Below are positions 697 to 4,202 of a DNA stretch of 4,248 nucleotides, piece after piece. The position numbers and the translations under genes were made by a program. Origin of the DNA: a virus (taxonomy: Duplodnaviria; Heunggongvirae; Uroviricota; Caudoviricetes); the IMG/VR virus record IMGVR_UViG_2671180417_000009; one strand, given 5' to 3'. The notes under the pieces are model-generated. The model was given only the letters and a program-made list of their open reading frames with translations, did not search any database and was not told the origin of the DNA. Numbering within the stretch: position 1 is the stretch's first letter; the number at the start of each line of letters is the position of its first letter.

Positions 697-1104
697 TTAT
701 TTATTTGCGCTTCTTTTGCGAGCTTTGAGTAGTTCTTCAAAAAGTTTGTTGAAATTCTCAACTCGAGCACGCATCTCTGACAACAGAGCCTTTTGCTCTG
801 ACTCAGGCAGTGCGTCGAACAGTTGAAGCAACTCTTTTTGATCTTCTGTCAGATTAACTGGCTGATTATCTGGGATCGGTTCGCCTGGTTGCTTATCTTC
901 ATCTCCAAAAAGAAGCCAAGTCGGCGAGCACTGAAGCGCCTGGCTCAGTGCGAATAATCTCTTCCCCGCTGGCTGTGTTTCATCTCTTTCCCATTGAGAA
1001 ATTGTTACGTGAGCCACTTTAACCAGCTTACCTAATGCGGCCTGAGACAGTTTTAATTTTTTACGCCTGTATAAGAGGCGAGCACCGAAGGTTTCGTTTT
1101 TCAT
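697..1104 (-). CDS. dicA: DicA-like prophage repressor (XRE-family HTH, CI-like, 135 aa)
   Basis: Track ORF 697..1104 (-). N-terminal HTH segment LSQAALGKLVKVAHVTISQWERDETQPAGKRLFALSQALQCSPTWLLFGDEDKQP and C-terminal ...PESEQ...EMRARVENFNKLFEELLKARKR closely match my recollection of E. coli Qin DicA (also 135 aa). Divergent from a cro-like gene, as in lambdoid immunity regions. No SD before the ATG. Confidence 0.9.
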   Translation of the reverse strand: MKNETFGARLLYRRKKLKLSQAALGKLVKVAHVTISQWERDETQPAGKRLFALSQALQCSPTWLLFGDEDKQPGEPIPDNQPVNLTEDQKELLQLFDALPESEQKALLSEMRARVENFNKLFEELLKARKRSANK

Positions 1105-1408: not shown

Positions 1409-1943
1409 ACAGGTTTGTGAGGCTCTGGATGCCTGGGTATGCCGACCAGGAATGACACAGGAGCAGGCGACGATATTAATCACGGAAGCATTCTGGGCTC
1501 TGAAAGAACGCCCGAACATCGATGTTCAACGCGTCACGTTTAATGATGGCGAGGTTGATCAACGGGCGCTGGGCGTTAACCGGGTGAAGATATTCGAACG
1601 CTGGAAAGCTATCGACACCAGGGATAAGCGGGAAAAACTCACGGCGCTGATTCCGGCAATTATGGAGGCTATCCGAATTAGTGATTTCAGGTTGTATCGT
1701 GAGATCAGTGATGGAAAAAGCATTACGTACATGATCGCCGGATTAAACAAAGAATATGGCGATGTGGTGGAGTCCGGGCTGCTTTTTGCGGATCCAGCTG
1801 TTGTGGAACGTGAGACTGACGAGCTTATAGAAAAAGCTATTGCTTTCAAGCATGCGTATCGTCAGCAATATCTATATTACTTTGCAGATAAACAAATGTC
1901 TGCCAGGGGTTCGTATGAGTATCGATGCACTACGATGGGCTAA
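1392..1943 (+). CDS. YdaT-family protein (CII-like regulator / reported toxin family), 183 aa
   Basis: Track ORF 1392..1943 (+); ATG overlaps the dicC-like gene by 17 nt, with a G-rich stretch upstream. N-terminus MKITPEQVCEALDAW and the segment DKREKLTALIPAIMEAI resemble Rac YdaT (MKI..., ...REKIQKLIPAIL...) as I recall it. Third gene of the rightward operon, the position a cII analogue would occupy. Longer than Rac YdaT (about 140 aa) through a C-terminal extension. Confidence 0.8.
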   Translation: MKITPEQVCEALDAWVCRPGMTQEQATILITEAFWALKERPNIDVQRVTFNDGEVDQRALGVNRVKIFERWKAIDTRDKREKLTALIPAIMEAIRISDFRLYREISDGKSITYMIAGLNKEYGDVVESGLLFADPAVVERETDELIEKAIAFKHAYRQQYLYYFADKQMSARGSYEYRCTTMG

Positions 1944-2955
1944 AAAGGTGAAAACCGGCAGTTCATCCAGTAAGTCAGTATTGACCTGGCTTGCTGATAT
2001 GTGCGGTGCCGATTTGTGTGCATACCCGTCTGTATCTGCCCTGGCAGAAGTAACGGAACTGAACAAAAAGACAGTGCAGGACAGCTTACGACACCTGATG
2101 GAGATTGGGTTAATTGTTGATACCGGTGAGAGAAAAGGCAGAACAAAGCAAATTGTGGTGTACCGACTTATCGGTGTAGAAGAAAGTGTTGCCGAGCCTG
2201 AATACACCCAAAAACGGGAGTCTTTAAAGGTGGGTAAAATTGGTGCTGTTAATAAAAACAGTACCGAAAATGGTTATGTTTCAGCACAAAAGAGCCCCAA
2301 AAACGGAACTCTTAGCTGCATGGAAAATAACCAAAGACACCCAAATTTTCCATCAAAGACACCCAAAAACGGATCACGGAACCCAAAGGAACCCAAAGAT
2401 CTAAACACCACACATAACGCACGCGAGAGTGCTCCGACCAGTGAGCAGAAAGTTTTGTCGTTACAGGCTGCACCTCCTGTATTCCTGGATGGCCTGAGCG
2501 AACCCATCGGAAAATTTCCGATGACCGATAGCTGGCATCCGTCGCGGGATTTTCGACGACGGGCTGCGTTGTGGGGGATGGCTTTGCCGGAGACAGAATT
2601 TACGCCTGCTGAACTTGCCGCATTCCGGGATTACTGGAGTGATGAGGGGAAGGTTTTTACGCAGGTTCAGTGGGAGCAGAAATTCGCCCGTCACGTAAAT
2701 CACGTCAGGGCGCAGGTTAAACCAGTCAGCAAGGGGGTAAACCATGCAGCAGCACCAGGTGGCACCGCATCACGGGCAGTTCAGGAAATTCGGGCAGCAC
2801 GTGAGCAGTGGGAACGTGAAAACGGATTTATCAGCGACGGAAACGGTCTGGAAGCTGTGGGAACTCATGGGGGAGGTTTATTCGAACCGCTGGACCCAGA
2901 AGAACGGGGCCGCACCTTCGAAGCTCTGGATTGCACAGATTGGCGCGATGACTGA
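1915..2955 (+). CDS. Replication initiator, lambda O-like: N-terminal winged-helix domain plus DnaT-like C-terminal domain (about 347 aa)
   Basis: Same frame as track ORF 1840..2955, but the preferred start is ATG 1915 (AGGGG SD at 1905-1909, 5-nt spacer), giving MSIDALRWAKKVKTGSSSSKSVLTWLADMCGADLCAYPSVSALAEVTELNKKTVQDSLRHLMEIGLIVDTGERKGRTKQIVVYRL, a wHTH-like N-terminus. C-terminal region DSWHPSRDFRRRAALWGMALPETEFTPAELAAFRDYWSDEGKVFTQVQWEQKFARHV resembles the DnaT C-terminal / YdaU (DUF1376) family. The start choice is an inference; the TTG at 1840 and ATG at 1852 lack an SD. Confidence 0.8.
   Translation: MSIDALRWAKKVKTGSSSSKSVLTWLADMCGADLCAYPSVSALAEVTELNKKTVQDSLRHLMEIGLIVDTGERKGRTKQIVVYRLIGVEESVAEPEYTQKRESLKVGKIGAVNKNSTENGYVSAQKSPKNGTLSCMENNQRHPNFPSKTPKNGSRNPKEPKDLNTTHNARESAPTSEQKVLSLQAAPPVFLDGLSEPIGKFPMTDSWHPSRDFRRRAALWGMALPETEFTPAELAAFRDYWSDEGKVFTQVQWEQKFARHVNHVRAQVKPVSKGVNHAAAPGGTASRAVQEIRAAREQWERENGFISDGNGLEAVGTHGGGLFEPLDPEERGRTFEALDCTDWRDD
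2204..2398 (+). repeat. Cluster of short direct repeats inside the O-like gene (candidate origin iterons)
   Basis: CCCAAA cores start at 2207, 2296, 2340, 2362, 2382 and 2392. AAAGACACCCAAA occurs twice (2333-2345, 2355-2367); CCCAAAAACGG three times (from 2207, 2296, 2362); GGAACCCAAAG in tandem (2378-2388, 2388-2398). Spacings 89, 44, 22, 20 and 10 bp are near multiples of a helical turn. AT-rich stretch at about 2225-2290. The repeats fall in the interdomain linker-coding part of the gene, as the lambda ori does in O. Confidence 0.4.
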
Positions 2956-3409
2956 GCAGCAAATCCGACAGGTCTGCCGCCAGTGCATGGACCGCTGCCG
3001 GGCGGGTGAAACATGGCCTCCGGACCTGGCTGAGTTTGTGGCACTGATTTCGGAAAGCGGAGCCAATCCATTCGGTCTGACGGTGGATGCTGTGATGGAG
3101 GAGTACCGCCGCTGGCGCAATGAGTCCTGGCGATATGACGGAAGTGATAAGTACCTGTGGTCTCAGCCTGTGCTGTATCACATTTGCCTCGAGATGCGTT
3201 CAAAGGGGATTGAGCGCCAGATGACCGAAGGGGAATTAAAACGGCTTGCAGAACGGCAGCTGGCGAAATGGGCAAAGCATGTTAGTAACGGCCTGAGCGT
3301 TCCGCCAGTCCGGCGACAACTGGCGGCACCCAAACGCCCGTCGGGGCCAACGCCAATTGAGTTGCTGAAACAGGAATATGAACGCCGGAAAGCGGCTGGG
3401 TTTGTTTGA
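2744..3409 (+). CDS. Replication protein P-like (lambda P family helicase loader), 221 aa if started at 2744
   Basis: Track ORF 2744..3409 (+). Its C-terminal two-thirds align by eye with lambda P: WPPDLAEFVALI ~ LPSPGQFVAWC, VDAVMEEYRRWRN ~ LVDMVYEYCRKRG, GELKRLAERQLAKWAKHVSNG ~ AELRRKAADELVHMTARINRG. ATG 2744 has a strong SD (AAGGGGG at 2731-2737, 6-nt spacer) and gives a lambda-P-like length (lambda P is 233 aa). Alternative starts: ATG 2867, and ATG 2948, which overlaps the O-like stop as ATGACTGA; the start is uncertain. No Walker A motif, so not a DnaC-type loader. Confidence 0.75.
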   Translation: MQQHQVAPHHGQFRKFGQHVSSGNVKTDLSATETVWKLWELMGEVYSNRWTQKNGAAPSKLWIAQIGAMTEQQIRQVCRQCMDRCRAGETWPPDLAEFVALISESGANPFGLTVDAVMEEYRRWRNESWRYDGSDKYLWSQPVLYHICLEMRSKGIERQMTEGELKRLAERQLAKWAKHVSNGLSVPPVRRQLAAPKRPSGPTPIELLKQEYERRKAAGFV

Positions 3410-3527
3410 GTTGAGAAGTAATTTTTACCGGGAGGAAATTTATGGAGACTGTTTTTGACGCACTGAAAGCGATGGGAAAAGCCACGTCGGTAGAGCTGGC
3501 TGCGCGCTTGATATCAGTCGTGAAGAA

Positions 3528-4202
3528 GTGCTGAACGAACTATGGGAACTGAAAAAGGCTGGTTTCGTTGATAAAAGCGCGTACACCTGGCGTGTGGCTG
3601 ATAACAACGTTCAGCAGGAACAGCCAGCGCAGGCAGAACTGCCGGAAGAAATCACCACAGCAACAGTAGCGAAAATCTCAGAGTGCGATTTAACCGCGAC
3701 GATTGAACAACGAGGACCACAAACGGCTGATGAGCTGGCTACGTTTTTCGGCATCACATCACGCAAAGTGGCTTCAACGCTGGCAATGGCAATCAGCAAA
3801 GGTCGTCTGATTCGCGTAAATCAGGGCGGTAAATTTCGTTACTGCATACCGGGCGATAATTTACCAGCAGAGTCGAAAGCAGCATCGGTAGCGGAAACTG
3901 ATGGTAAGGCCTTTCCTCAGACCGCAGGTGTTGCGTTACCAGTACAGGAGGCTGCAACACAGGAAGATATTAAAACAGAAACTGTGGCGGACATTGTGCA
4001 GTCGTTGCCATCGTTTACCGAAACGCAAGCAGATGAGCTGATTTTTCCGTCCCTGCGCAGGACAAACCTGGCGCTGCGCAGGGCGAAAAGTGATGTTCAG
4101 AAGTGGGAGCGAGTCTGCGCCGCGCTGCGGGAGCTGAACAAGCACCGGGATATTGTTCGACAGATTACTGATTCTTCCCGCCATGTTGCATCGGAAAAGT
4201 GA
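3528..4202 (+). CDS. Hypothetical prophage protein with winged-helix-like N-terminus; longest ORF of an apparently frameshifted gene
   Basis: Track ORF 3528..4202 (+), which begins at GTG with a poor SD. The frame is open back to 3459 with no start codon, and reads ...[32 protein letters not shown]. Upstream ORF 3442..3534 (ATG, GGAGG SD 6 nt upstream) in another frame encodes [30 protein letters not shown]. Joining the two at about 3508-3512 gives one continuous wHTH-like N-terminus, so this is likely the 3' part of a gene disrupted by a 1-nt indel. Function not recognised. Confidence 0.55.

Follow-up and report, generated by a model that had tools for sequence, protein, structure and literature searches.

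A 212-nt out-of-frame overlap between the initiator and helicase-loader genes in the replication module of a lambdoid Escherichia coli prophage

In the replication module of phage lambda, the initiator gene O and the helicase-loader gene P overlap by 4 nt (ATGA). Where phage genes on the same strand share a long overlap, two frames are read and the ordered part of one protein typically lies over the disordered part of the other. Here we describe an overlap of 212 nt between an O-like and a P-like gene in the 4,248-nt stretch of DNA analysed (IMG/VR virus record IMGVR_UViG_2671180417_000009, Caudoviricetes; hereafter the window), which its open reading frame (ORF) listing and Pfam matches identify as the part of a lambdoid E. 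coli prophage that holds its immunity and replication genes. Unlike in other long overlaps, neither protein is nested in the other; instead, two essential partner genes interlock end to start. Gene order and roles are those of the lambda O-P module, and P here is colinear with and of the same family as lambda P, but the initiator is outside the lambda O family. The nearest precedent is lambda O', a minor product that arises when the O stop codon is read through and that terminates, in the O frame, 35 or 62 codons into P (PMC3640518). Like the O-like protein of the window, it carries a C-terminal extension that is encoded, in a different frame, by the 5' part of P. Lambda O' needs UGA read-through, however, whereas the extension of the window O protein is constitutive, acidic and conserved in frame across many lineages; the lambda O' extension is basic, and no similarity was found between the lambda O' peptide and the window O tail. 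The same two protein families, a DnaT-type initiator and P, are also found in phiv142-3 and contig L128 with acidic/aromatic O tips (PEAWEDFL and LDFHNTDWIHAIRDGHV), but there O stops where P starts, the overlap is 4 nt and the N-terminal 60-70 residues of P are encoded without overlap. A search of the literature collection used here found no description of a long O/P overlap. The overlap described here is real, ancient and mis-annotated, and it represents a variant of the known O/P module and a systematic annotation error rather than a system of a new kind.

The O-like ORF (frame 1) meets its first stop at the TGA at 2953-2955. In frame 2 (+1 relative to O), the P-like ORF runs from the ATG at 2744 to the TGA at 3407-3409 and is preceded by an in-frame TAA at 2738-2740. 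The initial annotation, which was made from the letters of the window without database searches, had given the same O stop, P start and overlap length, and all of its coordinates were correct. The features of the two genes and of their overlap are as follows.

1915-2955, plus strand: O-like initiator or replisome-organizer gene, 346 amino acids (aa); ORF, with identical coordinates in relatives annotated by the Prokaryotic Genome Annotation Pipeline (PGAP)
2744-3409, plus strand: P-like helicase-loader gene in its full form, 221 aa; ORF, Pfam PF06992, colinear with full-length lambda P
2744-2955, plus strand: out-of-frame O/P overlap, 212 nt, with P in the O frame +1
2731-2737, plus strand: Shine-Dalgarno (SD) sequence AAGGGGG for P, within the O coding sequence, 6 nt before the ATG at 2744
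2744-2746, plus strand: proposed P start codon ATG; the corresponding ATG lies 42-53 codons before the KNG motif (K53 of the window P, nt 2900) in 34/34 loci
2756-2827, plus strand: part of the overlap constrained by O, encoding the O segment TASRAVQEIRAAREQWERENG; the P frame reads a predicted disordered lead-in (residues 5-28)
2828-2955, plus strand: part of the overlap constrained by P, encoding the predicted P helices 29-46, 48-54 and 60-67 (domain II); the O frame reads a predicted disordered acidic tail ending in GLEAVGTHGGGLFEPLDPEERGRTFEALDCTDWRDD
2867-2869, plus strand: in-frame ATG (Met42 of P), rejected as an alternative start
2948-2950, plus strand: in-frame ATG (Met69 of P), the RefSeq/PGAP start, rejected as the main start; it forms ATGACTGA at 2948-2955
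2953-2955, plus strand: O stop TGA, made from the P codons ACT GAG

Judged from its sequence, the P-like protein belongs to the helicase-loader family of lambda P. It matches Pfam PF06992 with 58.3 bits (cut-off 26; E 1.1e-15) over residues 55-188, and the match begins at profile position 27, which is 14 residues before the start at 2948. A profile search of the PDB also finds lambda P (E 1.7e-6), but it aligned residues 66-186 only and was uninformative about the N-terminus, for which a fold search was used. In the AlphaFold2 model of the 221-aa protein, residues 1-27 are disordered (predicted local distance difference test (pLDDT) <50) and helices span residues 29 to 181, beginning with 29-46 (pLDDT ~84), 48-54, 60-67 and 71-86, with a terminal helix at 204-217; the initial remark that the N-terminal residues of P look structured thus agrees with the model. 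The top Foldseek match of the model is 9oa1_Z, the sole fully resolved lambda P chain (E 3.6e-6, 213 columns), and in a multiple alignment the window P is colinear with lambda P from about residue 8 of the latter. In lambda P, the lasso formed by residues 1-29 is probably disordered in solution and domain II begins at about residue 30 (PMC12661323). With the limits taken from that work, the model predicts for the window P all four parts of the lambda P family architecture, i.e., an N-terminal lasso, two helical domains and a C-terminal lasso helix.

The O-like protein consists of an N-terminal helix-turn-helix (HTH), a DnaT-type domain, a linker, a helix and an acidic tail. It matches the Pfam family DnaT (63.6 bits, E 1.4e-17), while its match to HTH_36 (20.9 bits) is below the cut-off of 25. 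It gives no match to the lambda O family PF04492 (Phage_rep_O), with which lambda O scores 123 bits, and it is O-like by position and presumed role only. The helix is predicted at 2773-2820 (RAVQEIRAAREQWERE, residues 93-108 of the model), and the tail beyond 2828, which comprises about the last 42 residues, is predicted to be disordered (pLDDT <50). A homologue search with the C-terminal half of O returned mostly partial proteins and added little. The linker is encoded by a region with direct repeats (ACCCAAAAACGG / CAAAGACACCCAAA, 2200-2397) that specify PKNG repeats in the protein, and the O-like protein of phiv142-3 carries matching PKNG repeats. By analogy with the lambda origin, which lies within O, these repeats could be candidate origin iterons.

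Conservation of the overlap was followed in 34 loci from Enterobacterales and Vibrio phages, which form 21 clusters below 80% nucleotide identity. The anchor pattern KNG...WPP missed L004, L034, L038 and, initially, L122-L124, and manual reading or a relaxed pattern was used for these. In all 34 loci the O and P frames are open, the third frame is stop-rich and an ATG is found before KNG. Across the overlap in the 32 related loci, the third frame has 0.055 stops per codon, the P frame 0.0009 and the O frame 0; outside the overlap the density rises to 0.042 for the P frame in O-only sequence and to 0.054 for the O frame in P-only sequence. In 34/34 loci the O frame runs on for 19-91 nt beyond the first base of KNG, and its stop lies at the same position relative to KNG as in the window in 14 enteric loci and in Vibrio phage D67. 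None of the O-like homologues with this arrangement ends near 2740, the outcome that the initial annotation had named as one that would speak against the overlap. The O/P overlap layout therefore exceeds chance. Within E. coli, the stretch 1900-3420 is found at ≥80% identity in 1257/5426 complete genomes, and the ATG at 2744 and both frames are intact in 61/61 haplotypes. Among these haplotypes, polymorphic sites per nt amount to 0.162 at 2744-2848 and 0.125 at 2849-2952, compared with 0.275 in the O-only sequence at 2500-2743 and 0.317 in the P-only sequence at 2956-3409. The density in the overlap is about half of that in the flanks, a reduction that had been expected of dual coding. A record with the same O-P layout, L126 (PP818812.1, Actinobacillus phage vB_Apl-pPE4), encodes a P 95.5% identical to that of the window; its assignment to an Actinobacillus host looks doubtful.

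Per-frame identity, compared in 12 colinear enteric loci, and the ratio of non-synonymous to synonymous change (pN/pS) reveal that the constraint is split between the frames. Nucleotide identity is low across 2744-2827 (0.52-0.76). Over 2759-2809, pN/pS is 0.42 in the O frame, compared with 0.38 in the DnaT domain of O, and 1.22 in the P frame. From P codon 29 (nt 2828) onward, amino-acid identity in the P frame climbs to 0.68-0.80, while that in the O frame is 0.36-0.40; pN/pS is then 0.31 in the P frame and 1.51 in the O frame over 2828-2866 (P codons 29-41), and 0.14 and 1.99, respectively, over 2867-2947 (P codons 42-68). P-only sequence gives 0.20 in the P frame and 2.04 when read out of frame, which the O-frame values beyond 2828 match. 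Each stretch is thus held by one frame, O over 2756-2827 and P over 2828-2955, and dual coding here does not amount to double constraint on the same bases. Of the properties of a functional dual-coding pair, open reading in both frames and a conserved start codon with its ribosome-binding site were found, but purifying selection on both proteins over the same nucleotides was not. Among the options offered initially, dual coding of about 70 codons is favored by the evidence.

Since the P frame is under selection from codon 29, P must start before nt 2828. The SD sequence AAGGGGG, recognized at the outset as very strong, pairs with the 3' end of 16S rRNA at -11.8 kcal/mol, a value reached by 0.4% of the plus-strand positions of the window, and the other gene starts in the window have -6.0 to -10.3 kcal/mol; the in-frame positions 2867, 2948 and 2987 have -4.2, -3.1 and -3.2 kcal/mol, respectively. 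In the 34 loci the median before the far ATG is -9.8 kcal/mol, and 19/34 reach -9 kcal/mol or lower, compared with 1.6% of positions within the O genes of these loci. In the O frame, the codon contributing the AT of this ATG encodes His, Asn, Tyr or Asp and yet is always NAT, which suggests that the nucleotides, and not the O residue, are under selection, and ten bases at the P start (GTAAACCATG) are identical between the window and Vibrio phage D67. A start at 2744 yields the complete architecture, a start at 2867 truncates the first helix and a start at 2948 loses three helices. A P start at 2744, with translation of the overlap in both frames, is quite probable, and from the sequence we infer that the ATG at 2744 is used in vivo. 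That P starts instead at the ATG at 2867, giving 180 aa and an 89-nt overlap, would agree with the conservation of Met42 (≥90% in an alignment of 28 homologues with 46-79% identity), with the many database entries of 179-181 aa and with the use of the equivalent ATG in some Vibrio phage records. It is improbable nonetheless: codons 29-41 are selected in the P frame and not in the O frame, the equivalent codon is CTG in three lineages (D67 (L003), L025 and L026), the SD there is weak across the loci (median -6.1 kcal/mol), half of the predicted helix 29-46 would be lost, and P genes without an O gene upstream begin further upstream, 43 and 27 codons before KNG in the two such genes found. Even less support can be given to a start at 2948 by termination-reinitiation at ATGACTGA, with a product of 153 aa and an accidental open frame upstream. 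The arrangement is a classic one for translational coupling, and the start is used by PGAP and one phage record, but the onset of the Pfam match, three predicted helices and six P residues that are invariant in the same 28 homologues (W50, K53, N54, G55, P58 and W62) all lie upstream of it, there is no SD, and the equivalent codon is not ATG in 13/35 loci (CTA, CTG, CTC, TTG, TTC, TGC or TGT). As the only start, 2948 is already contradicted. Upstream selection and invariant residues together mean that P cannot start only at 2867 or only at 2948, the two alternative starts that the initial annotation had offered. Least probable of all is a programmed frameshift within the overlap that would yield an O-P fusion with no independent P start. 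P does lie in the O +1 frame, and a handful of database entries resemble fusions (P0083 and P0107), but these are single-member clusters and probably sequencing frameshifts, the ATG and SD at the P start are conserved, a -1 shift from O enters the stop-rich third frame, and the low nucleotide identity over 2744-2827 makes a conserved shift site unlikely, although no systematic search for shift sites was made.

Several observations weigh against a P start at 2744 and against a role for both readings of the overlap. On the side of P, codons 2-28 are without amino-acid constraint (pN/pS 0.8-1.2), GTG codons at 2759, 2801 and 2816 are conceivable starts, though without an SD, and the SD itself is weak in Vibrio phage D67 (-3.5 kcal/mol) and in a few enteric loci. 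The openness of the P frame over codons 1-36 was considered as proof of coding and rejected as weak, as it is open in ~66% of resamplings given the O protein. The case for 2744 therefore depends on the ATG, the SD and the need to begin before codon 29, and not on conservation of the lead-in. On the side of O, the last ~42 residues have no amino-acid constraint of their own, and O ends 33-36 nt earlier in L022, L030 and L040. The tail motifs arise when invariant motifs of P are read in the shifted frame (EPLDPEERG from SNRWTQKNG and LDCTDW from LWIAQIG), and selection for the tail Trp was rejected because it alternates with Arg through the synonymous P Ile codons ATT, ATC and ATA. Such a tail could be a tolerated passenger, with O working up to about 2827 and its last residues having no function, a possibility that we rate well below an even chance. 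In its favor, beyond the earlier stops, the Trp/Arg alternation and the predicted disorder, are an O-frame pN/pS over 2828-2947 (1.5-2.0) that equals the value for P-only sequence read out of frame, and a synonymous divergence of the P frame that is barely reduced over 2828-2947 (0.59 vs 0.67). Against it stands the openness of the O frame. When synonymous codons were resampled with each P protein fixed, the O frame was open to 19 nt past KNG in 10-46% of resamplings; it is observed open in 21/21 clusters, and no locus stops before that point. The joint chance of this is ~1e-13, a figure that treats the clusters as independent and is somewhat overstated. Also against it, all the unrelated Vibrio initiators bear the tail, and an end of the LD..(T/G)DW type occurs on lambda O and on P0179 without a long overlap. 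The frame of the O tail is maintained while its sequence is free, so the initial suggestion of a Gly-rich, non-conserved extension holds for the sequence and fails for the frame. An independent function of the O tail is close to an even bet, perhaps with a slight lean toward one. Folding of 2690-2800 was also examined for RNA structure that might mask the ribosome site of P, and this candidate was discarded (z-score 0.64, no better than shuffles).

The LD..(T/G)DW-type end was noticed in initiators of different families: lambda O ends in LDLTNTDWIYGVDL (L127, 87-986), which resembles the LDCTDWRDD of the window (2926-2952), and the DnaT-type protein P0179, whose overlap with its P partner is only 4 nt, ends in LDFHNTDWIHAIRDGHV. 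The similarity could reflect a docking peptide or a coincidence. The P genes without an initiator upstream are found in Erwinia genomes (L031, 2992-3618; L037, 2974-3543) beside ordinary host genes, which by eye resemble a tRNA-modification enzyme in one case and a membrane transporter in the other; they may be remnants or domesticated loaders.

Based on these results, we propose that in this lambdoid replication module the loader gene, in the +1 frame, starts within the initiator gene and shares 212 nt with it, and that ribosomes would initiate P independently at the ATG at 2744 by means of the strong internal SD while O-translating ribosomes pass through the site. The product would be a 221-aa P with the full four-part layout of lambda P. 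Over 2756-2827 the conserved O helix would set the sequence and P would read from it a disordered N-terminal lead-in that is free in sequence; over 2828-2955 the first three helices of P domain II would set the sequence and O would read from it a disordered acidic tail, dictated in sequence by the codons of P, with the frame kept open. In module exchange the overlap segment would travel with the P gene and would thus supply the upstream initiator with a tail that the loader gene encodes. Functions for the O tail or the P lead-in are something that we infer, and it is speculative that P domain II is contacted by the O tail, or by the helix of O immediately preceding it, and that the overlap keeps a matched pair together through mosaic exchange.

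The Vibrio phages bear on the exchange of modules. The same tail is found on initiators with an HTH and a DnaT domain (window), on those with HTH_36 only (Vibrio phages D67 and D173) and on that of Vibrio phage 199E37-1, which has DUF6291 and a C-terminal domain that is lambda-O-like by eye and gives no Pfam hit. Similarity between the O proteins of 199E37-1 and D173 is limited to the last 64 aa (56% identity) and begins at nt 1386 of L122, adjoining the P ATG at 1387. The match between the O proteins of the window and D67 is confined to the HTH and the tail. Thus, the overlap segment behaves as though it belonged to the module of the P gene, with the boundary at the P start seen in one pair of Vibrio phages. 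The Vibrio loader-like genes lie at 2501-3160 in L003, 1387-2028 in L122 and 1393-2034 in L123; the annotated loader gene of D67 starts at 2834, far within the conserved ORF. Their products match the window P over residues 1-132 only and have no Pfam hit. They may be related to the VdhL-type loaders known from Vibrio phages and Vibrionaceae, whose description mentions no overlap (PMC11087808). The Vibrio phage proteins studied here share with the window P the overlap, the first ~130 residues and the O-like neighbor but differ in the C-terminal half. A bolder idea, which we regard as tentative and rather less likely to be right than wrong, is that the loader gene carries, in the second frame of its 5' end, a C-terminal adaptor tail for any upstream initiator. 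This would explain why unrelated initiators share the tail and why similarity starts at the P start codon, and also why the tail is shared by modules with lambda-P-type and with Vibrio VdhL-like loaders, which differ in their DnaB-binding halves. If so, the initiator-loader contact would be inherited as one cassette that recombination could not split.

Existing annotation reports the loader in shortened forms. In E. coli, the RefSeq/PGAP "replication protein P" corresponds to 2948-3409 (153 aa), with 68 loader residues cut off, and PGAP places the start of the loader in relatives from Salmonella, Klebsiella, Citrobacter and Pectobacterium at the equivalent of 2867 (180 aa). Phage records put the P start at 2948 or 2987 (153 or 140 aa), and other database entries are 221-223 aa long, as expected for a start at 2744, or 179-181 aa, as expected for one at 2867. 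Gene callers as a rule limit same-strand overlaps to well below 212 nt, to ~60 nt in the case of Prodigal, and arrangements like this one are therefore systematically missed.

Other genes in the window are the following, together with a DUF1627 gene identified by Pfam.

697-1104, minus strand: cI-like repressor gene
1181-1408: cro-like gene
1392-1943: YdaT-like gene

Two shorter same-strand overlaps, of the cro-like and YdaT-like genes (1392-1408, 17 nt) and of the YdaT-like and O-like genes (1915-1943, 29 nt), are annotated by PGAP in relatives. The DUF1627 gene has one base fewer at 3506-3507 than two close relatives (GCGCG-CTTG vs GCGCGACTTG); the missing base breaks the frame from the ATG at 3442, and the listed ORF resumes at the GTG at 3528, so that the gene is a pseudogene or the sequence contains an error. 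Three antisense ORFs of 80-136 aa on the minus strand within the P gene (2831-3275) are taken as accidental open frames in G+C-rich coding sequence.

For work on these loaders, the practical meaning is that the annotated protein would lack the lead-in at its N-terminus as well as up to three domain II helices, and that cloning the annotated gene would yield a truncated loader. For the family, the locus provides a long and old same-strand overlap of partner replication genes in which, in each frame, constraint is divided between folded and disordered parts, and it suggests a testable idea of how mosaic phages may keep their initiator-loader pair matched.

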